Shown: one piece after another, positions 1 to 18,676 of the stretch
Layout: each line of letters starts with the position of its first letter
How positions within the stretch are numbered: position 1 is the stretch's first letter
Assembly (NCBI GenBank): GCA_041746755.1
Contig: JBGTGL010000017.1
Coordinates: 1-33,971, forward strand
Length of the DNA: 33,971 nt
Reading direction: 5' to 3'
Source of the DNA: Acidimicrobiia bacterium
Lineage (GTDB): Bacteria; Actinomycetota; Acidimicrobiia; Spongiisociales; ZC4RG35
Position numbers and translations under genes: made by a program
Notes under the pieces: generated by a model
Told to the model about the DNA's origin: nothing
Seen by the model: only the letters and a program-made list of their open reading frames with translations
The model's database searches: none

Positions 1-78
1 GCTGGGGCGCGGATATTGAGGGTAATCGGGTGGTGTTGCCCCGCAATGTCGCGTTGTCGTTGGGTGACCGTGTTTCGG
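1..78 (+). repeat. Dispersed intergenic repeat, copy 1 (right part; probably continues left of the window, may fade out near 125)
   Basis: Aligns to 7584-7662 at 64/79 by hand count, including exact GGGTGACCGTGTTTCGG (62-78 = 7646-7662). GGGTAATCGGGTGGTGTTG (20-38) is identical to 15211-15229. Confidence 0.85.
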
Positions 79-127
79 GTAGGGGAAAGCCGGGGCCTTG
101 TGATGCTCTGTGTGGGGTGTTTCCGCC

Positions 128-159
128 TTGACCTTCCAGTCGAGTGGAAGGTGTATAAA
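128..159 (+). promoter_or_regulatory. MerR-family metal-responsive promoter/operator for copB
   Basis: TTGACC (128-133), 20-bp spacer, TATAAA (154-159). Near-perfect 22-bp palindrome ACCTTCCAGTC/GAGTGGAAGGT (131-152) overlaps the -35 and spacer, as in CueR/ZntR-type promoters. Confidence 0.8.
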
Positions 160-238
160 TGGTTGTGCGACTTCACCGATGACCGATGAAGTCGTCCGAC
201 CGACACCAACCTGCACGAGGAAGCCAAGTGATGAGCCA

Positions 239-2311
239 ATGACTGATCATCAAAACCACCAGGCGAAGGGCCTGACCGGGACCGGTAGCCATGAGGGAGA
301 CGACAAGAGTTCTGGCTTAACCGGTCACTCCCCTCACGGCGGCCACGACAAGCACGCTGGTCACAGCGTGGCCATGTTTCGTGACCGATTCTGGCTCTCA
401 CTGGCACTGACTCTGCCGGTCGTCTTTTACAGCGAGATGATCCAGGAGTGGTTCGGTTACACCGCTCCGGCCTTTCCCGGCTCAGAATGGGTCGCCCCGG
501 TCCTGGGAACCGTCATCTTTTTCTATGGGGGGTCGCCGTTCCTAAAGGGTGCCGTTCAGGAAGCACGCGACCGTCAGCCAGGAATGATGCTGCTGATTGG
601 GATGGCCATCATCGTGGCCTTCGTCGCTTCGGCGGCCACCACTTTTGGTTGGTTCGACCTCGACTTCTGGTGGGAGCTGGGGGCCCTGATCACCATCATG
701 TTGCTTGGGCATTGGATGGAGATGCGGGCAATCGGCCAGGCCCGGGGAGCATTGGCCGCTCTCGCCGAGCTTTTGCCGGACGAAGCAGAGAGGGTCATCG
801 GCGACGGAACTGAAACGGTATCTCTCGCCGCTCTAGCGGTTGACGATGTCGTCCTGGTCCGTCCGGGTGGGCGCGTCCCCGCCGACGGGGAGATTGTCAG
901 CGGCGAGGTCGAAGTCGACGAGTCGATGGTCACCGGCGAGTCCAAACCGGTAGCGAAGAGTCCAGGCGACAAGGTCGTGGCCGGAACCGTCGCCACCGAC
1001 AACTCGATCAGGGTGCGGATCACTGCCGTAGGTGAGGACACTGCTCTTGCCGGCATCCAGCGTCTGGTAGCGCAAGCCGCAGAGTCTCAGTCCCGGGCCC
1101 AGGTGCTGGCCGACCGAGCAGCTGCCTTGTTGTTCTATGTTGCTGTGACTGCTGCGGTGGTCACATTCGTGGCATGGCTTATCGTTGACCAGCCAAATCA
1201 AGCTGTGGTGCGGACCGTCTCTGTGTTGGTCATTGCTTGCCCCCACGCCCTCGGTTTGGCTATTCCCCTGGTCATCGCGATTTCAACCTCGATGGCTGCC
1301 CGCGACGGGATTCTGGTCAAGGATCGTCTCGCTTTCGAGCGAATGCGCAACATAGATGTCGTCCTGTTCGACAAAACCGGGACCCTCACCAAGGGAAGCC
1401 ACAAAATTACCGGTGTCGTCTCCGTCGACTCCGACAACGACCGGCTCGTCGCCATCACCGCAGCAGTCGAATCTGACTCTGAACATCCGCTGGCCCGGGC
1501 AATTGTCACCGCCGCCAGAGAGCGGGGCACTATTCCTGTCGCCACTGGGTTCAAGGCGATGAGCGGCCGAGGAGTCCAAGCCGACGTCGATGGACAGACA
1601 GTGGCTGTCGGGGGCCCGGCGCTCCTATCGGAGCGCGGTGTTGAAGTCCCGAAGGCGGTAGGGGAAGCGGTGGACGCCTGGAAACAAAGAGGCGCCGCCG
1701 TGCTCTACGTTATCGAGGGCGACCAGGTCACTGGTGCTCTCTCCATGGAGGATGAGATTCGACCCGAATCCAAGAAAGCCGTCGACGAGCTTCATGGTCT
1801 TGGGGTGAAAGTAGCGATGATCACCGGGGACGCCCACCAGGTCGCCGAAGCCGTGGCGGCCGAGTTGGATATCGACTACGTCCTTTCTGAAGTCCTCCCC
1901 GAGGACAAGCATGCCAAGGTCGCCGAGTTACAGCGGCAGGGCCTCAAGGTGGCCATGGTTGGTGACGGCGTCAACGATGCTCCCGCCCTGGCGCAGGCCG
2001 ATGTTGGTATTGCCATCGGAGCCGGCACCGATGTCGCAATCGAATCCGCAGGGATCGTCCTCGCCTCCGACGACCCCCGGGGAGTCGTCGGAATCCGGAG
2101 ACTTTCTCAGGCGGGGTATCGCAAGATGATCCAGAACCTGGTCTGGGCAGCGGGATACAACGTTGCTGCGATCCCCCTCGCTGCGGGTGCCTTTGCCTGG
2201 GCAGGGATCGTCCTCGGACCCGCTCTGGCGGCGGTGCTGATGAGCGCATCAACTGTCATCGTGGCCATTAACGCTCAGCTCCTACGTCGGGTTGAGCTTC
2301 GTCCGTCATGA
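239..2311 (+). CDS. copB: P1B-3 (CopB-type) copper-exporting P-type ATPase
   Basis: His-rich N-terminus, TGES, IACPHALG (CPH motif), DKTGT, SEHPLA, GDGVND, YN and MSAST in the last helices. Start moved from 110 to ATG 239 because the promoter lies at 128-159. Confidence 0.92.
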   Translation: MTDHQNHQAKGLTGTGSHEGDDKSSGLTGHSPHGGHDKHAGHSVAMFRDRFWLSLALTLPVVFYSEMIQEWFGYTAPAFPGSEWVAPVLGTVIFFYGGSPFLKGAVQEARDRQPGMMLLIGMAIIVAFVASAATTFGWFDLDFWWELGALITIMLLGHWMEMRAIGQARGALAALAELLPDEAERVIGDGTETVSLAALAVDDVVLVRPGGRVPADGEIVSGEVEVDESMVTGESKPVAKSPGDKVVAGTVATDNSIRVRITAVGEDTALAGIQRLVAQAAESQSRAQVLADRAAALLFYVAVTAAVVTFVAWLIVDQPNQAVVRTVSVLVIACPHALGLAIPLVIAISTSMAARDGILVKDRLAFERMRNIDVVLFDKTGTLTKGSHKITGVVSVDSDNDRLVAITAAVESDSEHPLARAIVTAARERGTIPVATGFKAMSGRGVQADVDGQTVAVGGPALLSERGVEVPKAVGEAVDAWKQRGAAVLYVIEGDQVTGALSMEDEIRPESKKAVDELHGLGVKVAMITGDAHQVAEAVAAELDIDYVLSEVLPEDKHAKVAELQRQGLKVAMVGDGVNDAPALAQADVGIAIGAGTDVAIESAGIVLASDDPRGVVGIRRLSQAGYRKMIQNLVWAAGYNVAAIPLAAGAFAWAGIVLGPALAAVLMSASTVIVAINAQLLRRVELRPS

Positions 2312-2688
2312 GGAGAACGGCCAGCGTCCTCTTGGCGGTCGCATTAGTGCTGGGCGGATGTGTGGTCGGTTCCGACGAGATCGAGTTACAGGATCCGGCT
2401 CTGGTCGAAGAGGGTGCCGGTCTTTACGCTGCCAATTGCGCCGCATGCCACGGTGACGACCTGCGGGGAACCGACAAAGGTCCATCGCATCTCTCTGTGC
2501 TGTACAAGCCGAGCCACCATGCCGACGGAGCCTTCCTACTTGCTGTCCAGAACGGCTCACGCTCCCATCACTGGTCCTTCGGTGATATGCCCCCAATCGA
2601 CGGCCTCACCCCAGAAAACGTCGAAGCGATCGTCGCCTTCGTCAGAGAGAAACAGCGGACGGAAGGCTTCGAGTCCTACCCGCCCTGA
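2308..2688 (+). CDS. Monoheme cytochrome c, probable lipoprotein, with two His-His motifs
   Basis: Signal peptide with LGGC lipobox, CAACH heme motif, distal GDMP Met, PSHH and SHHW motifs. ATGA overlap with the copB stop. Confidence 0.85.
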   Translation: MRRTASVLLAVALVLGGCVVGSDEIELQDPALVEEGAGLYAANCAACHGDDLRGTDKGPSHLSVLYKPSHHADGAFLLAVQNGSRSHHWSFGDMPPIDGLTPENVEAIVAFVREKQRTEGFESYPP

Positions 2689-2709
2689 AATTGGCGGGCC
2701 ACTTCGAAG

Positions 2710-2759
2710 CCGAACACGGACACCCCTGCATGACCATCCAGACCCACCCGCTAATACCC
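2710..2759 (-). repeat. Dispersed intergenic repeat, copy 2 (inverted, highly degenerate)
   Basis: CCGAACACGGACACCC (2710-2725) matches the reverse complement CCGAAACACGGTCACCC with 1 gap and 1 mismatch. It is followed by CCACCCGCTAATACCC, versus CCACCCGATTACCC in the reverse complement of copy 1. Confidence 0.5.
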
Positions 2760-2761
2760 GT

Positions 2762-3778
2762 TTAGTGGGTGTGGTGAGCGGTGGTGTCGTGTCGGTTGGG
2801 CTGGTCGTGGGGTTCGATGTGGATTGTGACGACGACGGGTGTGCTGAACCGGTGGTGGAGTGCGTGTTCAATGTTGTTGGCTATGTCGTGGCCCTGTCTG
2901 ACGGTCAGGTTCGGGTCGACGGACACGGAAGCTGCGATCCGCAGTTGGTGTCCGTTCCATCGCATCCTTAGGTCATCGACAGTTTTGACTCCTTCAACGT
3001 CGTGAATGGTGTCGGAGGCGATGTCGACCACTTCTGGTTCGATGCCGTCGAGTAGTCGTCGGAAGACTCGACGTCCTGATCTTGCGAGAAGCCACATGAT
3101 CGGCACCGCCACTGCGAGACCAGCGACAGGGTCAACCCAGGCCAAGCCAAACGACGCGCCGACTCCAGCCAGGACCACGGCGAGGGAGGTGAGAGCATCG
3201 GTGCGGGCATGGCCGCCGTCCGTGATCAATGCTTCTGATCTGATCGATTTGCCGACTCTGATCCGGTAGCGGGCAACAATCTCGTTTCCCAGAGCTCCAA
3301 TGAGACCGGCGGCGATTACCCACGGAATCTGACTCATCAGCCGAGGTTCGGCCAGTCGCTGAACCGACTCCCAGATGACGAGGACGGCGGACGCTCCGAT
3401 GGCCAGAACGATGAGCAATCCAGCCCAATCCTCGGCCCTGTTGAACCCGTAGGTGTAACGGCGGCTCGCTGGACGTCGACCCAGCGAGAAGGCGATCCAT
3501 AGAGGAATCGCGGTCAGGGCGTCGGTGACGTTGTGCAACGTGTCGGACAGCAACGCCACCGAGCCGCTTAAAACGAAGATGATGGCTTGAAGCGCGGCGG
3601 TGATGCCAAGGGCAACCAACGACACTTTGGTGGCGCGGATGCCGACTGCACCGGTATCGAGAATGTCGGAGTCTGGTGCGTGATCGTGGTCGAGCATATG
3701 TCCAAGCCGGTTTCCGAATTTGGTAAAACGAGACTCCACGCCACTGGCATCGTGGTTGTGGTCGTGGTCATGGCTCAC
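2762..3778 (-). CDS. Cation diffusion facilitator (CDF) metal efflux transporter
   Basis: His-rich N-terminus (SHDHDHNHD), SGSVALLSDTLHNVTD, TYGFNRAE, HARTD, C-terminal dimerization domain ending IHIEP. GTG 3778 lies 6 nt after a TATCGT -10 (3785-3790). Confidence 0.92.
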   Translation of the reverse strand: MSHDHDHNHDASGVESRFTKFGNRLGHMLDHDHAPDSDILDTGAVGIRATKVSLVALGITAALQAIIFVLSGSVALLSDTLHNVTDALTAIPLWIAFSLGRRPASRRYTYGFNRAEDWAGLLIVLAIGASAVLVIWESVQRLAEPRLMSQIPWVIAAGLIGALGNEIVARYRIRVGKSIRSEALITDGGHARTDALTSLAVVLAGVGASFGLAWVDPVAGLAVAVPIMWLLARSGRRVFRRLLDGIEPEVVDIASDTIHDVEGVKTVDDLRMRWNGHQLRIAASVSVDPNLTVRQGHDIANNIEHALHHRFSTPVVVTIHIEPHDQPNRHDTTAHHTH

Positions 3779-3821
3779 AAGTCCACGATATGACGCTGTC
3801 AAACCCAAGGCGAGTCGCCAA

Positions 3822-3984
3822 CCGATCGCAGTAAGGAGCGGCATCCCGGCAGGGGTGAGTGGGTCGTTGGCCTGGGTCGGTGTTGCGATCAAATCAAGAC
3901 AGCCGCCCGTACCAGTCCGCCTAGAAAAACCCAGCGATCTTGAACGAAACAGTTCACACGCGTTCCGAATTTTCAACGTTCGCG
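3822..3984 (+). repeat. Dispersed intergenic repeat, copy 3 (left part)
   Basis: 3917-3984 aligns to 7483-7553 at 54/71 (CCGCCTAGAA...CACACGC.TTCC...GTTCGCG). Weaker co-linear similarity extends back to CCGATCGC at 3822 and 7383. Confidence 0.7.
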
Positions 3985-4026
3985 CGGGTTTCCAGCCAGC
4001 CCATGAGGGCACGAGGGCGTGATGGG

Positions 4027-4818
4027 TTATTGGCGGCCTTTGGCGAGCCGCGTCCGATCACCAGGAGAGTCGGCAGGGAGGATCATGAGTGCTCGACCTT
4101 GTCGATCGCCAACCATTCGTAGATTGAGCTCAAAAATGTCACTGAGCAATTCCTCGCTCAAGACATCGTCCGGGTGGCCCGCGGAGCGAACCGTTCCGCC
4201 TTTCATGACTACTACATGGTCGGCAAAGCGGACGGCGGCGCTGAGGTCGTGCAGGACAGCGACCACAGTTGACCCATTGGCTGCGGAATCACGCAGCGTG
4301 CCAAGCACTAGTTCTGTGTGGGCGATGTCGAGACCATTGGTGGGTTCGTCGAGAATCATTAGTGGCGCGACTTGGGCCAGGATTCGGGCCATTTGAGTCC
4401 GACGGGCCTCGCCCGTCGAAAGCGAAGAGACCAACCGGTGCGCCAGAGTCCCAAGGTCCATACTGGCGATTGCACGATCAACGAGGGATTCGTTCGGCTT
4501 TACCCATGGATGTTGGCCCATCCGTACAACGTCACGGACTGTGAAGGGTACGTCCGAAGGCAAATTGGTTGACATGTAGGAACGCTTCTCGGCGAGTTGG
4601 GCGAATGACATTGCGTGTGTAGATCGACCGTCGATAGTTATCTCACCGTTCGTCGCGGTTTCGAGGCCGGCAATGACGCGGAGTAGCGTCGTTTTGCCGG
4701 CTCCGTTAGGCCCGAGGATTGTCGTAACTTGGCTTTCCGGAATCTCGAGGTTGATCCGGTCCAGGAGTGTTGCGGTTCCCGACATGAGCGAAACATCGCG
4801 GACTTCGACGGCGATCAT
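4027..4818 (-). CDS. Heme/siderophore/cobalamin-type ABC transporter ATP-binding protein (HmuV-like)
   Basis: Walker A GPNGAGKT, LSTGE signature variant, ILDEPT, VLHDL switch. Confidence 0.88.
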   Translation of the reverse strand: MIAVEVRDVSLMSGTATLLDRINLEIPESQVTTILGPNGAGKTTLLRVIAGLETATNGEITIDGRSTHAMSFAQLAEKRSYMSTNLPSDVPFTVRDVVRMGQHPWVKPNESLVDRAIASMDLGTLAHRLVSSLSTGEARRTQMARILAQVAPLMILDEPTNGLDIAHTELVLGTLRDSAANGSTVVAVLHDLSAAVRFADHVVVMKGGTVRSAGHPDDVLSEELLSDIFELNLRMVGDRQGRALMILPADSPGDRTRLAKGRQ

Positions 4819-5804
4819 AGAACCCTCTTCTTCAGGAGCATTACGACCAGGAGAGGTCCGCCAATCGCCGCGGTGACAACTCCCAGGGGGACCTCTACAT
4901 TTCCTCCGATGCCCCGGATGAGGATATCGGAACCGAGCACGAAAACCGCCCCCACGACCGCAGATGCATGAAGGAGGTGCCGATGGAACGGACCGACGAA
5001 GCGTCTCGCTATGAGGGGTGCCAACAGCCCGACAAATCCAACAACTCCGGCGACCGCTACCGACGCTCCGGTGGCAACCCCTGTGGCGGTGAGGACGAAC
5101 ACCGATACCCGATTCACGTCTACACCAAGACTTATCGCCTCGTCATGGCCAATCGCAAGGAGGTCGAGTGAGCGCGAGAGACGGCCAATCACGATCGTCG
5201 TGATCGCCACCAAGGGGAGAGCCAACCAAACAACCGGCCACGTGACCGTCCCGAGACTTCCAAACACGAAGTAGACAAATGTGGGCAAACGCGGGCTTTG
5301 TAAGGCATAGGTGAGCATGAGGGTCCACGCAAGGAATACGAAATTGAGCGCGACTCCAAGAAGGATCATGCCTTGCCCGATGTCAGCGATTGCCGCCATG
5401 CGCCGGGTGGCGAGTGCAAGGAGGCTACCTGCAAGAGCCGCAAGGACCAGTGGATACACCGGAGCTCCACCCACTGAACCGAACAGTGCTCCGATCAGGA
5501 ATCCGAGTCCGCCTGCGGAGGAAATGCCAAGTAGATATGGCTCTGCGAGGCGAGTTGTGTACACCGCTTGTAGCCCGACCGCGGCCACCCCCAGCGCTAC
5601 TCCGATGAGCACGCCGCCGATCACGCGGGGAAGGCGAATGTTTAGAACGATACCGTCGGTGAGGCGAGCGCCTCCGTCGAGTCCGATACCACTCAGTAGA
5701 CCATTCCAAACTTCGCTGACTGAGAGATTGGCCACCCCGACGAACAAGCTCACAACAACAATAGAGACGAAAACCGCGTAGAGGCCGATCCAGCGGGCAA
5801 CCAC
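4815..5804 (-). CDS. FecCD/BtuC-family ABC permease (HmuU-like)
   Basis: IRLPRV, LAEPYLLGISS, G..EA.SLGV, GFVGLLAP and EVPLGVVTAAIGGP motifs; highly hydrophobic. Confidence 0.9.
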   Translation of the reverse strand: MVARWIGLYAVFVSIVVVSLFVGVANLSVSEVWNGLLSGIGLDGGARLTDGIVLNIRLPRVIGGVLIGVALGVAAVGLQAVYTTRLAEPYLLGISSAGGLGFLIGALFGSVGGAPVYPLVLAALAGSLLALATRRMAAIADIGQGMILLGVALNFVFLAWTLMLTYALQSPRLPTFVYFVFGSLGTVTWPVVWLALPLVAITTIVIGRLSRSLDLLAIGHDEAISLGVDVNRVSVFVLTATGVATGASVAVAGVVGFVGLLAPLIARRFVGPFHRHLLHASAVVGAVFVLGSDILIRGIGGNVEVPLGVVTAAIGGPLLVVMLLKKRVL

Positions 5805-6706
5805 TATTTGAAGTTCTGCAGGCCGGCAATCAGCAGGGTTAGCGATTCAGCTACCCGCGGGCCAAAGGTGAGGAAATCGCCCTCGGGGTAGACGAGAATC
5901 GCTTTGTTGCGCCCAGCCGGGGTTTCCGCGACGCCCGGTATCTTGAGAAAGGCGGAGACTCCGCCCAAGACATCCAACCCCTCTTCGGGCACGATGATGA
6001 CGTCGGGGGCGGCTGCCACCAGGGCCTCGGCGGACACCTGAACCGTCCCGGTGACCCCGGCAGCTGCCCCGGCGTCGATCGCGCCGGCGGCTTCGATCAT
6101 GGGTTGAGTCGACATCCCCTGGCAGAAAAGTAAGACCACATCCGGACCCCTGGTATAGACAAACGCAACCCTCAAACCTGTGTCGGTCGCTTGGGTCTTG
6201 GCTGCTTCGACTTCCGAGGCAATCCTGGCGATGAGTGCCCTTGCTTCGTTCGGTTTGCTTAGTACTGACCCCAGTTTTTCAATCTTGTCGTACATAGCCT
6301 CGAAGGTGGTGGGCACATCCAACACCTCGACAGCCACGCCGGCGCCTCGCATCTGGTCTAAGGATTCGGCTGGTGATGTTTGGGTATCGGCGAGGACCAG
6401 AGTTGGGTCGACTCCTAGGACCCCTTCGGCGGTTATGAAACGACCAACGCCAACAACCGGGAGCTCCAGAGCCTCCCCGGGAAACACAGTGGTGACATCG
6501 ACACCCACGATGCGATCTCCCGCCCCCAGTTCGTAGACAAATTCGGTCAGGTCTCCCGAGAGGGTGACAATGCGCGACGTGTCAGCATTGGCGGGATCCT
6601 CATTGGTGCCTGCGCAAGCGGGCACCACTGTGAGGAGGAGAGTGGTGGCGGCGCAACGCCTTAGCCAGTTGGACAGGCAGACCTCGCTGACGCCATGACG
6701 CTGCAA
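5804..6706 (-). CDS. Class III substrate-binding lipoprotein (HmuT-like); start uncertain
   Basis: VPAC lipobox, RIVTLSGDLTEFVYELG, IVGVD, AEGVL, AEALVAAAPDVI, TPAGRN, FGPR. The 5' end overlaps the upstream lipoprotein gene. Confidence 0.85.
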   Translation of the reverse strand: MQRHGVSEVCLSNWLRRCAATTLLLTVVPACAGTNEDPANADTSRIVTLSGDLTEFVYELGAGDRIVGVDVTTVFPGEALELPVVGVGRFITAEGVLGVDPTLVLADTQTSPAESLDQMRGAGVAVEVLDVPTTFEAMYDKIEKLGSVLSKPNEARALIARIASEVEAAKTQATDTGLRVAFVYTRGPDVVLLFCQGMSTQPMIEAAGAIDAGAAAGVTGTVQVSAEALVAAAPDVIIVPEEGLDVLGGVSAFLKIPGVAETPAGRNKAILVYPEGDFLTFGPRVAESLTLLIAGLQNFK

Positions 6707-7173
6707 AACATCTCACGCGTGACCTGCCAACCATCATCGGTCAGTACGGCCGTGCCGTCCAGATCGGGGTAGGTGGGGTTACCGCTGAAAAAGAGGGTGT
6801 ATACGACATCGGCCATTGCTCCGTTGACTGCCACAGCGGTGGGCTCGGCGGTCACGCCACCGACCGAGGCACCGGTGGCTTCATAGGCGGCCACCGTATC
6901 TTCAAGACCCGCAGGGTCGTCGATCAGAGCCGACTTTTCTTCAAACGAGGTGGTCGAGTCAAATACCACGCTATACACGGCAACGATTGCGTCCACTTCG
7001 GCATTCTCACCGGGGACAATGCCAGAAGTCTCGGTAGAGGTTGTGGTCGATTCTGCTGTTGTTGTGGTTGGCTCGGACTGGGTGGTGGTCGATCCACCGT
7101 CGCCCGTGCCGCAGGCGGCAACAAGGAGCGAGATGCACGCCAACACGGCCAATGTTTTGTTTGAGTTGAACAT
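6661..7173 (-). CDS. Lipoprotein with Thr/Ser-rich linker and a C-terminal domain with two Cys (possibly MTB12-like)
   Basis: VAAC lipobox after a hydrophobic signal, TTTQSEPTTTTAESTTTST linker, C-terminal GWQVTREMFC...C. Start ATG 7173 (7182 also possible). The MTB12-like call is recalled similarity only. Confidence 0.75.
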   Translation of the reverse strand: MFNSNKTLAVLACISLLVAACGTGDGGSTTTQSEPTTTTAESTTTSTETSGIVPGENAEVDAIVAVYSVVFDSTTSFEEKSALIDDPAGLEDTVAAYEATGASVGGVTAEPTAVAVNGAMADVVYTLFFSGNPTYPDLDGTAVLTDDGWQVTREMFCSVMASARSACPTG

Positions 7174-7382
7174 ATCTGGCATCTTGGACTCACGTGACGC
7201 CGACAGCCAGTCGAATCGATTTCGACGGCTTGTCGACTCGCAAAGGCACCATCGCATTCAGGAGGCCATTGAAGGTATTGATAGTGGAAATGCATCCTTG
7301 AGTAAAAGACCCGAGACCAGGGTGTGATCAAGGCGTCTCCGATGACCCACCACAAGCGAACTTGAGAACCTAGCCGACCGGG

Positions 7383-7713
7383 CCGATCGCCGCTCTCTCG
7401 GCCAAGCCGGCTGGTTTCTGTCTTTAATGCTGATGGGATAGTCGCGTTTATCCTCAAGCAAGCGTCACGTCTGGAACCCTGGCCGCCTAGAAGAAACGAC
7501 AGCCAATTTGCTCGAAGTAGTGCACACGCATTCCCAAATTTCCAGAGTTCGCGTTCACGGTTGGAAACTCCGTTTCTTCGGGCGTTGGGACGCGGATGTT
7601 GAGAGTAACCGGGTCGAGTTGGCCTGCAATGTTGCATCGTCGGGCGGGTGACCGTGTTTCGGACCGACCTTCGTCCGTATCGCCGGCACCGGGTTTCCCG
7701 GTGGATGTTTCTG
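7383..7713 (+). repeat. Dispersed intergenic repeat, copy 4 (longest; contains both left and right parts)
   Basis: 7483-7553 matches 3917-3984, 7559-7623 matches 15163-15231, and 7584-7662 matches 1-78. Outer limits are approximate. Confidence 0.8.
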
Positions 7714-7762
7714 TATTCATCTGTCGAATCCGTGCTTAAGTTCTGCCTGATTACTATCAGCC

Positions 7763-7791
7763 AAAGTAAAACCCGCACCGGGTGGTGCGGG
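7763..7791 (-). terminator. Intrinsic terminator downstream of hisD
   Basis: Minus strand CCCGCACC-ACCC-GGTGCGGG followed by TTTTACTTT. Confidence 0.75.
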
Positions 7792-7916
7792 ATCCAAGTG
7801 GCTGAACCTTCGAAATGGTTAGTTCACAGCGAATCCCTGCCACATTTTGAATGTGGTCGTAGCGGTCCGGGTACACATCGCGTTTCTCAAGATCACACGT
7901 CGTACCCGTGCTGTTA

Positions 7917-9170
7917 TCACGCGTCAAAAGTCCGCCGACGGGCAAGGGCAGCCCGGGCGTGGCCTTCCAGCCCTTCGAGCCTTGCAAGCGCCGTCACGTC
8001 TTGCACCATCGGAGCTGCATCTTCGACTTGAAGCCATGTCTGGGGTCGGAGAAATGTCGAGATCGACAATCCCGCATGAAACCTCGCGCTACCTCCCGTA
8101 GGGAGGACATGGTTAGGTCCGGTTCCATAGTCGGCAAACGCCTCGGCAGATTGCGGGCCAAGGAATACTGAACCGTATTCGGTGAATAGGTCAGCCTGAG
8201 CTAGGGCCTCTTCGGTGTGGAGCGCCAGATGCTCGGGAGCGAGCGCGTTGCTGATCATCGCCGCGGATTCGATATCGTCGACTACGACTGACATCCCCGT
8301 TGCGAGCGCATCGGCCGCGATCGTGGCAGTAGGCAGGTCGTAGAGTTGAAGGGCTATTTCGCCGTCCACGCGGTCCATGAACTCGAAGCTGAACGCTACG
8401 AGGATCGGCCGGGCATCGGGGTCGTGTTCCGCTTGCGCGATGAGGTCACGAGCCACCAGCGACGGATCTGAGGTGGAGTCGGCGATCACCATGATCTCGC
8501 TTGGCCCGGCCAAACCGTCAATCCCGATTTCACCAAACAGGTGCTTTTTTGCGGCGGTTATCCACTTGTTGCCAGGCCCGACGATGAGGTCACACCGCGG
8601 TGAGAGGGTCCCGAATGCCATGGCTGCAATAGCCTGTGCGCCGCCGATGGCGAGAAGTCCATCGGCCCCGGCGACGTGGGCCGCCGCGAGAGTGACCTCG
8701 TTAGGGCGAGGAGAAGCAACCCAAACCTGCGTGACGCCAGCCACCCTCGCCGGAACCACCGTCATCAGAACCGTGGAGGGCAGGGGGTAGCGGCCACCCG
8801 GAGCGTAAGCGCCAACCGAGGCAACGGGTCTCAGGATGTGACCCGCCCGGCCACCCGGTACTTCAACGTCCAGGTCTGAAAGGGTTGCCCGCTGTGCCCT
8901 GGCGAAGCGTTCGATTCTCGACGCAGTTCGTTCCAGGAGTTGTCTGGTCACATCAGAAACCGATTCATACGTGTTGCCGAGTTCTTCGGGTCCGAAAACG
9001 AGTTGGTCTCCGGCAGTTAAACGGTCGAACTCGGCCGCATAGCTGCGAACTGCCGACTCTCCGCGGAGACGAACGTCTTCGACAATTGCGATTGCGTCGG
9101 CAAGGGCTGAAGAATCGAGAACTTGGCTTCTCGCCATGGCCGTCATCTCTTCAGGTGTCTTTCGGATCAT
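7917..9170 (-). CDS. hisD: Histidinol dehydrogenase
   Basis: YAPGGRYPLPS, GGAQAIAA, GPGNKW, AGPSE, QAEHD, APEHL, GPNHVLPT. Confidence 0.96.
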   Translation of the reverse strand: MIRKTPEEMTAMARSQVLDSSALADAIAIVEDVRLRGESAVRSYAAEFDRLTAGDQLVFGPEELGNTYESVSDVTRQLLERTASRIERFARAQRATLSDLDVEVPGGRAGHILRPVASVGAYAPGGRYPLPSTVLMTVVPARVAGVTQVWVASPRPNEVTLAAAHVAGADGLLAIGGAQAIAAMAFGTLSPRCDLIVGPGNKWITAAKKHLFGEIGIDGLAGPSEIMVIADSTSDPSLVARDLIAQAEHDPDARPILVAFSFEFMDRVDGEIALQLYDLPTATIAADALATGMSVVVDDIESAAMISNALAPEHLALHTEEALAQADLFTEYGSVFLGPQSAEAFADYGTGPNHVLPTGGSARFHAGLSISTFLRPQTWLQVEDAAPMVQDVTALARLEGLEGHARAALARRRTFDA

Positions 9171-10435
9171 TTCTGGTTACTGCCTTTGGCGAGCATCGGC
9201 CGTCTTGACACGTTGAGTTCCCTGCGGTCCAGGATCCCCGCGATGGCACCGAGGTCCGCCCCTGCGGACACTGCTTTTACCAGCGTGAAGTAGATAAGGT
9301 CGGCCGCCTCTCGTGCAACGGCGTTCTTGTCGGACGATGCTGCCAGCTCGCCTGCTTCCTCAACAAGCTTCGCAGCCAGTAGTGACGGATCTTTCAGTAA
9401 CGACGCGGTGTTCGAATCAGGCTGAGGTTTGTCGGCCATAGTCCTGAGTCGTCTGGCCAATCTGGTGATGCCGCGGTCATCGCCCCAACAGGTTCGACGG
9501 TCCAAGTGACAGAACCCGGGTTCGGCTTGTTCGACCACGAATCGAAGTGTGTCGCGATCACAGTCGGCATCGATCGAAAGCAGCGTCTGAAGAGCTCCAG
9601 AGGTCTCGCCCTTGACCCATGAGCCGCGGGATCGACTGTGATAGACCCCGCGGCCGGTTTCAACCGCAGATCTGACGCTGGCGAGGTTCGACCAGGCCAT
9701 GCCGAGTGCGACGCCATGTTCATCGGTGACAACAGTTGGCCACAGCCCGTCTGCCCGGTCTGACTTCAGCGGAGCGGTCAGTGCTTCGGCCAGGCCAAGC
9801 TGACCCGTGTAAAGCGCCATGCCGACCTGTGCATCGGCGCCCAACTCGTCCAGCGCCGCTATCTCGTCTGCAGTCGTGATTCCGCCGGCGATCGTGACCC
9901 TGGTCTGCCGGGCTGCATCCGCAACACGCGCTGAGCGCATTAGGTCCGTCCCGGCGAGCCGTCCCTCTCGTTCGACAAATGTGATCAGAAAGCCGCCGCA
10001 GAGGCCACGGAACCGATCGATTGAGTCGAAAAGGTTGGTGCCAGTCTCCTCTCGCCAACCATGGGTCACGATCAAAGAGTCGCGTGAATCAAGGGCGACG
10101 ATCACACGATCTCGGGGGAGGGCAGATAGCAACGGTTCATCTGCTGCTGTGCCGATGATCACTTTGTCGGCTCCCGAATCGAGCCAGTGCAGGGCGGTGG
10201 CGCTGTCCCGTATTCCGCCACCAACTCTCACCCTGCCCATGCCGCAGAGTCTCTCGATGAGTTCTGAGTTTTGGCCCACACCTCGTGCCGCATCGAGATC
10301 GATCACCGCGACTTCGCCTACTACCGAGAACTGTTTCATCTTCTCGATCGGGTCGGCCGTGACCAGGGCAGCGCCCTCGCCTCCCTCGAGTTGGACTGCT
10401 CGACCCTCCGTCAAGTCGATAGATGGGACGATCAT
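9167..10435 (-). CDS. HisA-like isomerase / HisI cyclohydrolase / HisE pyrophosphatase three-domain fusion
   Basis: N-terminal IVPSIDL, IDLDAA, VGGGIR, IGTAA, ALD, AGGI (HisA/F barrel). Middle YHSRSR..WVKGETSG, DCDRD, FCH....TCW (HisI). C-terminal KLVEEAGEL...EAADLIYF (HisE). Confidence 0.9.
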   Translation of the reverse strand: MIVPSIDLTEGRAVQLEGGEGAALVTADPIEKMKQFSVVGEVAVIDLDAARGVGQNSELIERLCGMGRVRVGGGIRDSATALHWLDSGADKVIIGTAADEPLLSALPRDRVIVALDSRDSLIVTHGWREETGTNLFDSIDRFRGLCGGFLITFVEREGRLAGTDLMRSARVADAARQTRVTIAGGITTADEIAALDELGADAQVGMALYTGQLGLAEALTAPLKSDRADGLWPTVVTDEHGVALGMAWSNLASVRSAVETGRGVYHSRSRGSWVKGETSGALQTLLSIDADCDRDTLRFVVEQAEPGFCHLDRRTCWGDDRGITRLARRLRTMADKPQPDSNTASLLKDPSLLAAKLVEEAGELAASSDKNAVAREAADLIYFTLVKAVSAGADLGAIAGILDRRELNVSRRPMLAKGSNQK

Positions 10436-11184
10436 GGACGGACCCCGAACCCGGCTCTTGATAGACCCGCCTTGATGTCGCTGACTGTGGTGTGGCGATC
10501 ATGGAGAATCGACGCCGCCAACACGGCCGATGCTCCGGATCTGAAAGCTTCGACCATGTGCTCGACAGATGCCGCCCCGCCCGATGCCACAACAGGAATT
10601 GTGACAGCTGCCGACACGTCGCGAATCAGATCCAATTCATAGCCATCGCCGGTCCCATCCTTGTCCCAACTGGTCAGGAGTATCTCGCCGGCGCCAAGTC
10701 CTTCGGCTGTCTCACACCATTCGACTACGTCGATCCCGGTCGATGACGCTCCGCTTTGGACCACCACCTCCCACGCCGTCTCTTTGAACCTCGCATCAAC
10801 GGCGACAACGACGCACTGGGCGCCGAATTCTCTCGCCAGCTCCTCGATCAGTTGAGGGCGCGCCACTGCTGCGGTGTTGACTCCCACGCGGTCGGCGCCG
10901 GCGTCGAGCAAACGGGCAGCGTCGGACAGAGCGCGCACCCCGCCACCGACGGTCAATGGGATCGACAGTTTTTCGCGAATCCCACGCACCACTTCGAGAT
11001 TGTTGGCACGCCCCTCCGGTGTGGCCGAGATATCGAGTAGGACGATTTCGTCGGCACCTTGTTCTTCGTAGATGAGCGAGTTCTCGACTGGATCACCGGC
11101 ATCCCTCAGATCCTGGAACCTGACGCCTTTGACGACACGGCCGTCAGCGATGTCGAGGCAGGGAATCACCCGCGGCGCCAGCAT
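10432..11184 (-). CDS. hisF: Imidazole glycerol phosphate synthase cyclase subunit
   Basis: MLAPRVIPCLD, VVKGV, GADE, PLTVGGG, GAGEILLTSWDKDGT, ASGGA. Start ATG 11184 overlaps the hisH stop. Confidence 0.96.
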   Translation of the reverse strand: MLAPRVIPCLDIADGRVVKGVRFQDLRDAGDPVENSLIYEEQGADEIVLLDISATPEGRANNLEVVRGIREKLSIPLTVGGGVRALSDAARLLDAGADRVGVNTAAVARPQLIEELAREFGAQCVVVAVDARFKETAWEVVVQSGASSTGIDVVEWCETAEGLGAGEILLTSWDKDGTGDGYELDLIRDVSAAVTIPVVASGGAASVEHMVEAFRSGASAVLAASILHDRHTTVSDIKAGLSRAGFGVRP

Positions 11185-11792
11185 CAGGACACCACCTGTG
11201 ACATCGTCAACCACCTCGTCAAGACTCGAGCACCCCAAGACCCGGACAGCTCGGGATGAAACTGGCATGCGAGGATGTCACCCCTCTCCAGTGCCGACAC
11301 AAATGCGCCCCGGTGGTCGGTAGTTGCCCCAACCCACCCGCCCGGAATAGATGCGAGGCGGTAGGAGTTGGCAAAATACGCCCATCCCGGCTCGATAAAG
11401 CGACATCCGGAAGCCGGTGAAACCAGATTCCATCCCAGCTGGGGCGTCTTGGCCCCGTTCCCAAAACGGGAAACCTGTTCCGCGATGAGGCCCAATCCTT
11501 CGACACCGGGGCTCTCGCTGCTCACCTCGGCCAGCAATTGCATGCCGACACAGATAGCAAGAGTGGCCCGGCCATCGCGCATTCGATCGACTAATGCGCC
11601 GCGCACCCCTTGGCGATCAATGGCGGCTGCCGCGGCCCCAAAGGTTCCTACACCGGGCAAGACAACACGATCGGCCTGCACGATGTCGCTCACATTTCCG
11701 CTGACGGCGGGGTGGGCACCGAGCCGCGAAAAGGCAGCCAGGACCGACGCAGTATTGGCAGTACCGGTGGGCACTATCACCAAACGGCTCAC
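11184..11792 (-). CDS. hisH: Imidazole glycerol phosphate synthase glutaminase subunit
   Basis: LPGVGTF, ICVGMQLL (catalytic Cys), PQLGWN, YFANSY, QFHPELS. Confidence 0.95.
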   Translation of the reverse strand: MSRLVIVPTGTANTASVLAAFSRLGAHPAVSGNVSDIVQADRVVLPGVGTFGAAAAAIDRQGVRGALVDRMRDGRATLAICVGMQLLAEVSSESPGVEGLGLIAEQVSRFGNGAKTPQLGWNLVSPASGCRFIEPGWAYFANSYRLASIPGGWVGATTDHRGAFVSALERGDILACQFHPELSGSWGARVLTRWLTMSQVVS

Positions 11793-12373
11793 TGCAGTGT
11801 GCCTTTCGTGCTGGGCACTCCATCGCCGGTTACGGAGACGGATTGTGCCAGGGCCAGAGCGACTGCCTTGAAGGCTGCTTCGGCCTTGTGATGATCATTG
11901 TCTCCCTTCAAGACGTCGACATGAAGTGCAAACCGGCCCTCCAAGGCGAAACTTCGGAAAAAGTGCACCAGATTTTCGGAAGCAACTTCCCCGATCTTCT
12001 CCCTCTTCAGAGACAACCCTATGTCCGTCCACGGGCGGCCCGAGATATCGACCACCGCCCTGGCGAGCGCTTCATCCAAAGGGGCGTACGCATTGCCGAA
12101 GCGGGCGATCCCTTTTCCCTCGCCGATGCAGTCGAGGAATGCCCGACCCAGGGCGATGCCACAGTCCTCGACGGTGTGGTGGTCGTCGGTTCCCAGATCG
12201 CCGCTAGCGTCCACGCTCAGGTCGAAACGAGAATGCTTGGACAATGTCGTGAGCATGTGATCGAGGAACCCGAGCCCGGTCTCTATCTGTGACTTTCCCG
12301 TTCCGTCGATGGAGAGCGAAACCCTGACCTCGGTTTCTGCCGTGGTCCGATTGAATTCAGAAATGCGTGTCAT
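11789..12373 (-). CDS. hisB: Imidazoleglycerol-phosphate dehydratase (monofunctional)
   Basis: RTTAET, FLDHML, DDHHTVED, PLDEAL, DISGRP, NDHHKAEA, VPSTKG. Start ATG 12373. Confidence 0.96.
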   Translation of the reverse strand: MTRISEFNRTTAETEVRVSLSIDGTGKSQIETGLGFLDHMLTTLSKHSRFDLSVDASGDLGTDDHHTVEDCGIALGRAFLDCIGEGKGIARFGNAYAPLDEALARAVVDISGRPWTDIGLSLKREKIGEVASENLVHFFRSFALEGRFALHVDVLKGDNDHHKAEAAFKAVALALAQSVSVTGDGVPSTKGTLQ

Positions 12374-14024
12374 CGAGGATCTCCTGTAGTTGGGCGGTCG
12401 AATTGAGGACTGCGGCGGCGTCGGCGAGCGCTCGCATAGCGTCGGTCGCACCTGGGCCTGATGCCGAGACCGCGATGGGGAGGACACCAGCCAGCCGTGC
12501 TGCGGCGATGTCATCACGAGTATCGCCCAGCAGCCAGCCATGGTTGGCCCCAAGCTTCTCCAGCGCCAAACGGACCGGTGCTGGGTCGGGTTTCATCGGG
12601 GCGTCGTCGCGGGTGACGACTATGTCGAAGAATTCCGTGAAGCCGAATCTCTCCAGCACCTCCTCGGCGTCTCGTCTCGGTCTCCCTGTGACAATTCCTA
12701 GTGGAAGCTTCGTTTTCCATCTGGCGAGAGTTTCGGCATCAACCAGTGGTTGTTCTCGGACCTTCAGCCCGGGACGGCCAGTGCTCCCCTGGTAGTTCGT
12801 CTCGAAACGGCGTATTACTTCGTCGGAATCGACCCGGACTCCGGAAGCGCCGCACAGGCGCATGGTGATGTCCCAATCGTCATTTGCATTTCCTGCTGTC
12901 TTGAGTGCTGAAATGTCAGCAGGCGTAACTTCCACTCCGAAGGAAGCGGCCGTGGCGATGATCGACTCGTGGTACGACTGGCTCACATCGACGATGACTC
13001 CATCGAGGTCGAAGAGAAGACACTCGGGGACGAGCACGGTGGTCAGCGATTCCACCAAACGCTTGAACTCGGATCGTCGGCCGGGAAGGCTGATCCGCAC
13101 GCTGTCGGCGAGTTCTTCCTGGCCTGGGAAGGTTCTGAGAGCGATACCCAGCGACCCCATGGCCCTGGTAAGCCAATCCGCGTTGCTCGTCGAGACGAGG
13201 AGGAAGTTTCCTTGAGATGAGAGAGCCTTCAGTCCGAAACTCTCGACCAGATCCTGCAGTTGCTTCCGTTCGACGCCCACTTCGTCGATGAAGCGCTTTC
13301 GGGGAGCAGGCTCCGATTTCAAGGCGAGCTCCGCGATATAGGCCGAGATGCCGGAGACAGGATACGGGCTGCCAAAAGCCGAAATCTTCTCGATGAGCTT
13401 CGTCGGTCCGATCAGATACCCGACCCTTAGTCCGGCAAGACCAAATGCTTTGGACAGCGTCCGGATCACGACCACGTTCTCGAGCTCAAGGGCAAGTGTT
13501 GTGAGATCTACATCGCCAAACTCCGCATAAGCGGAGTCGAGGACGACCAGGGGAGAACACCCGGCCAGCTGCCGGAGGTCGCTCGGAGTGATTGCTTGCC
13601 CGGTGGGGTTGTTCGGTGAAACCACGATGGAGAATGAGGATTCGGTGGCGGCGGCAGCGAATTCGTTGAGGGGAAAGGGGCCATCCCACCACGAGATGTC
13701 AATGCGGGTGGAGCGCGATTGCTCCCCGTACCTACGGACCATCTCGAAGGTGGGAGTCGTTGCGATGAAGGTTCCACCGGCCATGGCTAGGAAGCATCGA
13801 GAAAGGGCATCGTCCCCGCCCGCGGTCACCAGGACCTGTCCTTCCTCGATATGGTGCCGCTCTGCTATTGCCGATCGAAGCCGTGAGGTCCGGGGGTAGC
13901 GGTTCGCCAGACCTACGAGGTTCTCGATTGGTCCTACCGAATCGAGAAACCAGGACGAGCCCTCGTTTCTGGAGAGGTCCAGTTCGATTCGAGAGGAAGT
14001 CTTGGGAGGGTCGTATGGTGTCAC
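12357..14024 (-). CDS. hisC: Histidinol-phosphate aminotransferase fused to a C-terminal HAD phosphatase (putative histidinol-phosphatase)
   Basis: SPNNPTG, DSAYAEF, RTLSKAFGLAGLRVGY (PLP Lys). C-terminal FDLDGV, VTGRP, KPDP, GDTRDD (HAD motifs I-IV). Confidence 0.92.
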   Translation of the reverse strand: MTPYDPPKTSSRIELDLSRNEGSSWFLDSVGPIENLVGLANRYPRTSRLRSAIAERHHIEEGQVLVTAGGDDALSRCFLAMAGGTFIATTPTFEMVRRYGEQSRSTRIDISWWDGPFPLNEFAAAATESSFSIVVSPNNPTGQAITPSDLRQLAGCSPLVVLDSAYAEFGDVDLTTLALELENVVVIRTLSKAFGLAGLRVGYLIGPTKLIEKISAFGSPYPVSGISAYIAELALKSEPAPRKRFIDEVGVERKQLQDLVESFGLKALSSQGNFLLVSTSNADWLTRAMGSLGIALRTFPGQEELADSVRISLPGRRSEFKRLVESLTTVLVPECLLFDLDGVIVDVSQSYHESIIATAASFGVEVTPADISALKTAGNANDDWDITMRLCGASGVRVDSDEVIRRFETNYQGSTGRPGLKVREQPLVDAETLARWKTKLPLGIVTGRPRRDAEEVLERFGFTEFFDIVVTRDDAPMKPDPAPVRLALEKLGANHGWLLGDTRDDIAAARLAGVLPIAVSASGPGATDAMRALADAAAVLNSTAQLQEILDDTHF

Positions 14025-14899
14025 GGGACGATCTGCTCCAGTCCTGAAACGACGATGTCGCTGGCTCCGAATTGCTTCAATCTTGGAATCAGCTCGGGAA
14101 GCTCCGACCTCGGAACTGCCGCCTTGATGGCGTAGCCCGACCCACCGTGCAATGCCGATATCGTGGGCTCCCTCATGCTGGGAAGCGCGGCGACCACTCC
14201 CTCTACGTCATCCTCGGAGACATTCAGTTCAACCATCACTCGGCCCCGGGCATCGAGGACCGATCGGACACTCAGGGCGAGGCCATCAATGGCCGTCTTC
14301 TTGCCGGGGTCCGACAGTGCCCCACGGCTGGCGTAGAGGCGTGTGGTTGAGGTCATCAACTCTTCCACAATCACCAGGCCGTTCGCCGAGAGCGTTTCCC
14401 CTGTTGCGGTGATGTCGACTATGACGTCGGCGTCTTCGGGAGGAAAGACTTCCGTCGCCCCGTAGGAGCGGACAAAGACGGCGTCGAGATTCCTTTGTGC
14501 CGCCCAGTTTCGCGAGAGTTGGTCGAGTTCGCTCGCTACCACCAGGGGTCGATTTGGAAGTTTCCCGCCAACAAGGAGCGATTCTGGTGCAGCCGCCACG
14601 ACGCGGACGGGGTCGAGCCCGGTATCGAGCAGCTCCACGAGATCTTCCGCCTTCTCGGCAACCCAGTCGGCACCGACAAAACCGAGGTCGCGAGACCCGG
14701 CCGCAAGCATCTCGACGATGTTCTGAGGTTTGAGCACTTTCACTTCGAGTCCCGCCAGGGACGAGACTGGCCGGTATCCGCGGGGTCCCGACCGAAGCCG
14801 AATGCCCGCGTCGTCGAGTAGCTCTGTAACCGCCCGTTCGGTGCGTCCCTTTGGGATTGCGAGGTGGACTATGTCGTTGTTGTTTCGGGGAATGGTCAC
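14021..14899 (-). CDS. hisG: ATP phosphoribosyltransferase, long form
   Basis: LAIPKGR, DLGFVGADWVAE, GATE, DVIVDITATGETL, and a C-terminal regulatory domain (PTIS...LK..GASDI). Confidence 0.95.
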   Translation of the reverse strand: MTIPRNNNDIVHLAIPKGRTERAVTELLDDAGIRLRSGPRGYRPVSSLAGLEVKVLKPQNIVEMLAAGSRDLGFVGADWVAEKAEDLVELLDTGLDPVRVVAAAPESLLVGGKLPNRPLVVASELDQLSRNWAAQRNLDAVFVRSYGATEVFPPEDADVIVDITATGETLSANGLVIVEELMTSTTRLYASRGALSDPGKKTAIDGLALSVRSVLDARGRVMVELNVSEDDVEGVVAALPSMREPTISALHGGSGYAIKAAVPRSELPELIPRLKQFGASDIVVSGLEQIVP

Positions 14900-14938
14900 T
14901 TCGTGTGCCTTTCCGCCGATCTAGCGATGAGCGCTCCC

Positions 14939-14971
14939 AAAAGAAAAACGCCGACCGCTGGGTCGGCGTTT
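14939..14971 (-). terminator. his attenuator terminator
   Basis: Minus strand AAACGCCGACC-CAGC-GGTCGGCGTTT then TTCTTTT, about 40 nt upstream of the hisG start. Confidence 0.9.
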
Positions 14972-14993
14972 GGATTGGTTTAGCCCGTTTCAG

Positions 14994-15059
14994 CTACCCA
15001 CAACTCAGCCGACCCCTGAAGGGGTGGTGATGAGTGTGATGGGCGTGTACCTGAAACAT
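14994..15059 (-). CDS. hisL: His operon leader peptide MFQVHAHHTHHHPFRGRLSCG (21 aa, 6 His)
   Basis: ATG 15059 to TAG 14994-14996. Six His codons among codons 5-12, and the antiterminator arm GGGTCGGC lies inside the ORF. Too short for the ORF track. Confidence 0.88.
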   Translation of the reverse strand: MFQVHAHHTHHHPFRGRLSCG

Positions 15060-15067
15060 GAAGCAGG

Positions 15068-15097
15068 AACCTAACGCGACATTTGGGCAAATGTCAA
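15068..15097 (-). promoter_or_regulatory. Housekeeping-sigma promoter of the his operon
   Basis: Minus strand TTGACA (15097-15092), 18 nt, TAGGTT (15073-15068), 8 nt, then the leader ATG. Confidence 0.7.
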
Positions 15098-15162
15098 GGT
15101 GGGCTCATTCTCCCTCCACAAGCTTCTCCCCTCCACAACCAAGTGATGGAGGGTTGGAACGG

Positions 15163-15231
15163 GGTCGGAAACTCCATTTATTCGGGCGCCGGGGGGCGGC
15201 AGAGGTTGGGGGGTAATCGGGTGGTGTTGGC
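15163..15231 (+). repeat. Dispersed intergenic repeat, copy 5 (right part)
   Basis: 15163-15188 versus 7559-7584 is 23/26 identical; 15211-15229 is identical to 20-38. Confidence 0.85.
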
Positions 15232-15235
15232 GGGT

Positions 15236-18477: not shown

Positions 18478-18676
18478 TATCGGCCCATTCCTGAGGAGCG
18501 GGGGGAATTGCAGACGAGAAGCGGGGAGGGGTTGGATGCGACGACAGCCCAATTCTATCGGTTGCCTGGGATGTATCCGGCTGGGCCGTCTTCCCCGGCA
18601 TGTCGCCACAACGATTCAAAGTCCCGGTCGAGCGTGTCGAACCATCCGGGGAGGTAGCCGCGACTTGTCCTAAAAG

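Follow-up and report, generated by a model that had tools for sequence, protein, structure and literature searches.

The 33,971-nucleotide contig JBGTGL010000017.1 (C17), which is the whole stretch analysed here and is called the window, belongs to an Acidimicrobiia bacterium assembly (GCA_041746755.1, here G000; 2.19 Mb, 210 contigs, 90.8% complete), and its first 15 kb carry degenerate direct repeats at joints between gene blocks. Comparison with 12 relatives of the same genus (G001–G012, making 13 genus genomes with G000) indicates that one segment of the repeat, which we name Y, represents paralogous copies of the promoter-leader region, about 100 nucleotides (nt) long, just upstream of the gene for tRNA-Arg(CCU). 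We lean slightly towards a history in which three blocks (copB, cytochrome c and a CDF exporter; an ABC importer; and a threonine leader with the his operon) were added in succession at the 5′ edge of this tRNA, just off the contig.

Extent and substitution pattern of the repeat

Four copies, all in direct (+) orientation, were significant: A (1–78), C (3912–3984 plus 3988–4028), D (7478–7662) and E (15145–15231). In blastn searches of the whole genome, 3–78 matched 7586–7662 (A–D, 82%, E 1e-13), 3912–3984 matched 7478–7553 (C–D, 74%, E 1e-6) and 15163–15231 matched 7559–7623 (E–D, 75%, E 1e-5), with 63 matches and 13 mismatches for A–D, 57 and 16 for C–D, and 52 and 13 for E–D. Smith–Waterman scores for A–D, D–E, C–D and A–E were each equalled by 0 of 200 shuffles. 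Within copy D we distinguish X (7478–7553) from Y (7559–7662).

A sequence-only reading of the window had described an element of about 300 bp at every module boundary of this region. Its copies at 1–78 and 15163–15231 held up in blastn and against shuffles, the second extending to 15145–15231, and the exact matches that it had counted were both recovered: a 19-mer shared by A (20–38) and E (15211–15229), and a 17-mer shared by A (62–78) and D (7646–7662). Its copy at 3822–3984 stood for 3912–3984 but not for 3822–3911 (51 of 500 shuffles against D; 1727 of 2000 in a colinear test), and its copy at 7383–7713 stood for 7478–7662 but not for the remainder, which had no similarity to the other copies. 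Because D outside 7478–7662 is common to no other copy, the shared unit is at most 185 nt. The proposed weak inverted copy at 2710–2759 fell away (no blastn match; 19 of 200 shuffles scored equally), and the gap between the cytochrome c and CDF genes had no copy, so not every boundary is marked. None was present in the seven intergenic gaps tested in the right half, as had been claimed. Whole-genome blastn and nhmmer gave the stretch 7478–7662 just three partner copies, all direct, and nhmmer (--max) with the profile model R2, described below, returned no further copy in the assembly, leaving the copies confined to C17.

Junctions C, D and E were bridged by independent contigs of sequencing run X1, possibly the source sample, with 0–2 differences, so the arrangement of the repeats is not a mis-assembly. 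Contigs of four sequencing runs held no joints linking repeat copies.

Mismatches between copies were spread evenly over the three codon phases (4/5/4, 4/6/3 and 8/5/3), with 1, 4 and 3 gap columns, so the repeat evolves as non-coding DNA, as the sequence-only reading had supposed. A coding or pseudogene origin was considered and rejected: 44 six-frame pieces of the four junctions yielded no Pfam family, the best match being to DUF7532 at E 0.021, which is not significant over 44 queries. A 77-amino-acid open reading frame (ORF) at 7487–7720 (minus strand) matched only itself among 5.8 billion proteins of 42–135 amino acids, and copy A was 63% similar to it over 19 amino acids, below the 82% nucleotide identity. 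A stop-free, arginine-rich frame of 213 codons (7185–7823, minus strand) extends across all of junction D; it was equalled in 18 of 1000 dinucleotide shuffles and had no family or homologue.

Y and the 5′ flank of tRNA-Arg(CCU)

Three Y copies lie in the window, annotated here on the minus strand: Y_A (1–78), which is cut by the contig start, Y_D (7559–7662), the longest, and Y_E (15145–15231), the outermost. A sequence-only profile built from all three (R1, of which Y_A covers positions 26–103) had a full-length match in G009, 19 nt upstream of a tRNA-Arg(CCT) gene, and in Smith–Waterman comparisons with that flank 0 of 1000 shuffles were as good as D and 2 of 1000 as good as A. A second profile, R2, was derived from an alignment (A6) of 13 copies in nine relatives, with G000 excluded. 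Its top three matches in the window were Y_D (7559–7653, 17.9 bits, E 7.5e-5, also the top match in the genome), Y_A (15–74, 14.0 bits, E 0.0012) and Y_E (15145–15236, 12.6 bits, E 0.0032); the next reached 7.5 bits (E 0.13). This reverse test is the strongest evidence for the homology between Y and the tRNA flank. R2 matched four more places in the genome, all within long open frames and none of them near a tRNA. Homology of the junction DNA surfaced only with profile models: when 400 genomes of the order were searched at the DNA level with 7478–7662, only matches of 17–33 nt came up, one of them recurrent, in ornithine carbamoyltransferase genes, and the 21-mer core had 12 scattered matches in unrelated taxa of a species-genome collection and one chance match in metagenome contigs.

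The tRNA gene together with 90–100 nt of its 5′ flank is 83–88% conserved in 7 of the 12 relatives (G001, G003, G007, G012, G008, G002 and G010; 13 genus genomes searched). Six further Y copies in relatives lack the tRNA (two in G009 and one each in G003, G002, G010 and G004), retaining just ~8–11 nt of its 5′ end. All three contigs that hold both the tRNA and a displaced Y (in G003, G002 and G004) have the displaced copy 2.1–4.6 kb away on the 5′ side and co-oriented, a geometry which argues that this tRNA and its promoter were repeatedly separated by inserted DNA. The 2.1–2.3 kb in between hold unrelated genes in G003 and G002 (a zf-CGNR regulator and a PNPOx-like protein), and the flank next to the tRNA in G004 has lost its likeness to Y. 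In the window, Y_E ends on its leader-proximal side at the expected start of the tRNA. Among the 34 tRNAs of the G000 assembly there is no tRNA-Arg(CCT).

Conservation in A6 is highest in two blocks, GAGGGTAATC and GTGCAATG, set apart by 16 nt of variable sequence; the GAGGG.AT block is invariant, and in the second block GCA is conserved to at least 90%. Read on the tRNA strand, the blocks correspond to TTGCAC-N16-TACCCT, conservation fades just beyond the −35 block, and we infer that they form a promoter of the tRNA that resembles the sigma-70 type. The hexamers were read by inspection, and a generic promoter scan did not list the Y blocks. Both window copies with intact blocks have a 16-nt spacer on the minus strand: Y_A has a putative −10 TACCCT (24–19) and −35 TTGCGG (46–41) that read leftward off the contig, and Y_D a putative −10 TACTCT (7607–7602) and −35 TTGCAG (7629–7624) that read toward X_D and the importer operon. 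In Y_E the end of a GTPase gene (stop 15236) stands in place of the −35 side, and the −10 is degenerate (TACCCC).

X occurs in two copies only, X_C (3912–3984, 73 nt) and X_D (7478–7553, directly beside Y_D), both on the minus strand. Beside X_C, at 3988–4028 (minus strand), alignments to displaced copies of relatives identify an arm, an 8-nt remnant of the tRNA 5′ end (reading ACGAGGGC on the plus strand) and the first ~10 nt of Y, cut short at 4027, where the ABC ATPase gene has its stop. This stretch matched the displaced copies C35a (88% over 42 nt, E 1e-8) and C35b (83%, E 2e-5) of G009 and, weakly, that of G002 (83% over 29 nt, E 0.028); the match to G002 draws mainly on the alignments. 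At junction D the arm and the tRNA remnant are deleted between X_D and Y_D.

Contig C35 of G009 carries direct repeats of ~573 nt (L078 2758–3330 and L079 2529–3091; 83% identity), 21.7 kb apart and each ending in the start of Y. Near them are an integrase C-terminal fragment (C35:6078–6221) and cupredoxin, globin and cation-exchanger genes, and the repeats may represent a larger island of the same kind. Separate copies of the tRNA 3′ half, which are attachment fragments displaced in the classical way, were found in G001, G003, G002 and G010 and on contig C178 of G000. The C178 copy (1089–1135) covers 47 nt of tRNA-Arg(CCU), at 94%, from the 3′ half as far as the anticodon loop. C178 itself carries no tRNA, and the copy is a fragment of the kind classically displaced by an island that lies 3′ of the tRNA.

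Proposed serial insertion and rival explanations

In the history that we favour, tRNA-Arg(CCU) would sit on the minus strand, ~40–55 nt beyond the left end of the contig. Every block would have entered between promoter and tRNA, with a promoter-leader copy staying or arriving with the tRNA, and would have pushed the previous promoter-leader copy outward. The minus-strand order would then run from the GTPase flank through Y_E, the threonine leader and his operon, Y_D, X_D, the importer, a composite of Y stub, 8 nt of tRNA, arm and X_C, then CDF, cytochrome c and copB, to Y_A and the tRNA, with X plus the arm as the tRNA-distal end common to the two younger blocks. We infer both the position of the tRNA beside Y_A and the serial character of the insertions. 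No integrase is present, and the insertions would have been carried out by a site-specific (tyrosine) recombinase that acted in trans or has been lost since.

Synteny speaks for joined modules, as the sequence-only reading had anticipated: each of the 12 relatives has the modules at separate loci or on separate contigs, with adjacency in none, and the Y flank is duplicated beside variable blocks in several. The flank beyond Y_E (GTPases, YgjP and amylase) is the tRNA's neighbourhood in G012 and G002 as well, and in G008 the importer abuts YgjP. A split-spacer origin, in which C and E would be halves of one spacer between the GTPases and CDF, was rejected; at the relatives' loci examined (GTPases in G011 and G006, CDF in G009, G012 and G005) the two are not adjacent.

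Several observations weigh against this history. The recombinase or transposase that the sequence-only reading had proposed to look for beside the repeats was not found: the window has neither integrase nor transposase, and no PF00589 domain in any ORF. The four tyrosine recombinases of G000 (PF00589) are on other contigs (C142, C31, C28 and C110), and the relatives gave integrase fragments only, a C-terminal one 1.6 kb from G009:C35a and an N-terminal one 3′ of the tRNA in G001. The contig does not contain the tRNA, so that its position next to Y_A is predicted, and the start of C17 shares no overlap with any contig end. The displaced piece includes at most 11 nt of tRNA, far less than in classical islands; Y_D and Y_E lack the 8-nt remnant, which in the window only junction C retains. 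X has no counterpart in the relatives, and nothing similar was found in the 400 genomes of the order searched. The E-values of R2 are modest (0.005 for D and 0.08 for A over the whole genome), and the copies are only 74–82% alike, so the events are old and the details of the junctions blurred. Besides the his block the G000 assembly has no his operon, and the block's junction with the Thr-rich leader is common to G002, which argues that it was relocated or trapped, not acquired as the sequence-only reading had suggested; being native, it is not ordinary island cargo.

These weak points (no recombinase, missing remnants, a unique X and a native his operon) leave local duplicative rearrangement as a serious rival, albeit one that we rate as somewhat unlikely. 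The tRNA flank and X would have been copied locally in an illegitimate or replication-based rearrangement independent of any recombinase, either by duplicative insertion with 65–76-nt target duplications or as filler DNA at the junctions, and the copies would be decaying, functionless scars. Direct repeats do bracket the importer (X_C and X_D) and the threonine-leader and his block (Y_D and Y_E), the substitution pattern is neutral, the window lacks a recombinase gene, and junction D lies at the deletion of thrA, which follows the threonine leader in G002 and G012 and is absent from G000; low-copy, species-specific repeats shorter than 200 bp are also common in prokaryotes, according to one report (PMC3372372). 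Such scars leave unexplained why the same geometry of flank duplication recurs beside variable blocks in G003, G002 and G004, and why junction C has the arm and the tRNA remnant in common with displaced copies of other species. We consider it quite improbable that copies of a strong tRNA promoter were instead kept by selection to drive neighbouring minus-strand operons. Y_A and Y_D do retain both hexamers at 16-nt spacing, and Y_D is directed at X_D and the importer, its supposed target; the importer, however, has its own conserved operator and upstream region (7183–7246, common to G008, G012 and G002), Y_E has no −35, and the his operon has a putative promoter of its own downstream of Y_E, copy C retains only ~10 nt of Y, and the copies differ by 18–25%, with indels.

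The remaining explanations treat the repeat as an element in its own right, which it is not. A lineage-specific miniature transposable element, resembling miniature inverted-repeat transposable elements (MITEs) or repetitive extragenic palindromic (REP) sequences, would fit the intergenic position and the partial state of some copies. It is nevertheless close to refuted, and with it the non-autonomous mobile element that the sequence-only reading had offered: the copies have neither terminal inverted repeats nor target duplications, no two of them have both ends in common, they lack a strong fold, no other real copy lies in the 2.19 Mb outside C17, no PF01609 transposase domain was found in the G000 genome, and the junction DNA had no match in plasmid and phage collections. 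Just as remote is a family of small structured RNAs, whether sibling small RNAs or a riboswitch-like leader, another suggestion of that reading. One two-sided pair change (T-A to C-G) in a 4-bp hairpin speaks for it, but ten folds over both strands were no better than shuffles (z-scores −0.57 to +0.86), consensus folds had energies of just −4.1 and −1.1 kcal/mol and their covariation term was positive, and Rfam gave no match at the gathering score in the window and none at E≤1 in 1–16000, with E of at least 1.8 the only values in 7150–7950.

The genus may possess, though we find this doubtful, a cassette-like accretion system at the 5′ boundary of tRNA-Arg(CCU) that builds arrays of integrase-less blocks. 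Recombination of each incoming block would take place in the first ~10 nt of the tRNA, and the block would supply a promoter-leader copy of its own, so that the tRNA would stay expressed while the old promoter was pushed outward. The stacked blocks would comprise metal exporters, an importer and even a core his operon, and the displaced strong promoters could act on neighbouring genes.

Gene setting and comparison with known systems

The Pfam gene map of the first 19 kb was the same as that of the sequence-only reading: a copB-type P-type ATPase (110–2311, plus strand) and cytochrome c (2308–2688, plus), then, all on the minus strand, the CDF exporter (2762 to ~3784), the ABC importer with its lipoprotein (4027 to ~7182), the his operon (hisD 7917 to hisG 14899) and two dynamin-like GTPases (15236–18609). 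A CueR-type operator/promoter precedes copB (128–158, TTGACCTTCCAG-N6-CTGGAAGGTGTATAA); blastn detected this promoter at five of seven copB loci of relatives, and a second copy in G000 (C5:7850–7886) precedes another P-type ATPase. Just upstream of the CDF start, 3800–3833 is 82–85% conserved with the CDF loci of G009 and G012 and may be that gene's own control region. A palindromic motif (…GTCGAATCGATTTCGAC…) at 7201–7227, just upstream of the importer lipoprotein gene and conserved in G008, G012 and G002, is probably the importer's own operator. By tetranucleotide distance, the first 7.5 kb lie at the 87–88th percentile and the his operon at the 47–69th; a foreign origin was not adopted on these values, which are not diagnostic.

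An orphan threonine attenuator stands just after hisD (7772–7920, minus strand), with a Thr-rich ORF MCTRTATTTFKMWQGFAVN (7878–7822) and a terminator hairpin (7791–7772). The stretch 7690–7916 is 74–78% conserved in G002 and G012, where it precedes the gene for a bifunctional aspartokinase/homoserine dehydrogenase (thrA). The G000 assembly has no thrA, and the comparison indicates that the gene was lost there, with junction D at the deletion site; junction D itself holds no remnants of thrA or YgjP. Neither Y nor X was found at the old his site (beside a class I tRNA synthetase; C100 in G000). At the other end of the operon, upstream of hisG (14946–15093, minus strand), are a His-rich leader peptide MFQVHAHHTHHHPFRGRLSCG (15059–14997), a terminator (14971–14946) and, upstream of the leader, a promoter-like TTGACA-N18-TAGGTT (15093–15065); a leader ending in FVSLHHHHPSRVG stands at the same place in five genus relatives. 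A hisC-like aminotransferase is fused to a HAD phosphatase domain by Pfam (12357–14024, minus strand), and the hisC proteins of relatives align to residues 1–331 only. The hisD query used here found no match in G008, G012 and the two-contig G011, and G002 keeps the last ~105 codons beside the threonine leader; the closest relatives may have lost a his operon that G000 retains.

If the stacking history is true, boundary repeats become a readable record, in which displaced promoter copies mark the order of block stacking beside one tRNA. Such arrays would then probably escape island finders that demand both an integrase and a tRNA fragment of some size, flank homology such as Y could delimit them in metagenome-assembled genomes, core genes (here the sole his operon) could land in a hot spot, and displaced tRNA promoters might alter the expression of neighbours. 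If the copies are plain duplication scars, the finding is an ordinary one.

Low-copy intergenic repeats have a described counterpart in TRIP1 of E. coli, dispersed over the chromosome and conserved across one species (PMC10888264). TRIP1 resembles the repeat in its few copies, in a length of 146–273 bp or less, in a position tens of bases past stop codons, in having a partial copy and in its link to rearrangement; unlike Y, it is not known to derive from a tRNA flank. Given such low-copy repeats and the abundance of short species-specific ones, the phenomenon taken purely descriptively is ordinary. Integron cassettes, promoterless single genes near an IntI integrase and attI, also have a repeat (attC) at module boundaries. 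The repeat here, by contrast, has no imperfect-palindrome fold of the attC hairpin kind and the window no integron integrase; its modules are whole operons with their own promoters or operators and in mixed orientation.

Tandem accretion of integrative elements is known, as are integrase-less, att-flanked 'cis-mobilizable' elements, in which the repeats are short identical cores. Here, similarly, blocks stand in a row with direct attachment-type repeats between them and no recombinase of their own; unlike the repeats of those elements, the copies hold different parts of a longer region and are 74–82% alike. The idea of a recombination site in an unrecognised cassette-like system survives in part: the repeat does mark joined modules and an insertion site, but tRNA-linked island arrays are already known.

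The nearest likeness is to islands at tRNA genes (tDNA) in the Islander collection, which lists a 5′ tDNA fragment in 159 of 3919 islands, and 125 tandem arrays with at least two members and four with at least three (PMC4383910). Such 5′-fragment islands have the tRNA at one end, as relatives G003, G002 and G004 do (C17 starts inside Y_A), a co-oriented displaced copy upstream, as on those relatives' contigs and among the four direct copies of the window, and variable cargo between; in both, the island restores what it displaces. The differences are that the displaced piece here is mostly flank (~100 nt) with only 8–11 nt of tRNA, that the window blocks contain no tyrosine integrase, that one of them is the native his operon, and that the tRNA is unassembled in G000. 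Because the integrase is missing and the tRNA fragment is so short, we file the arrangement as working like a tDNA-island array and not as a proven member; as an array, it is a variant of tRNA-linked island arrays, a known kind.

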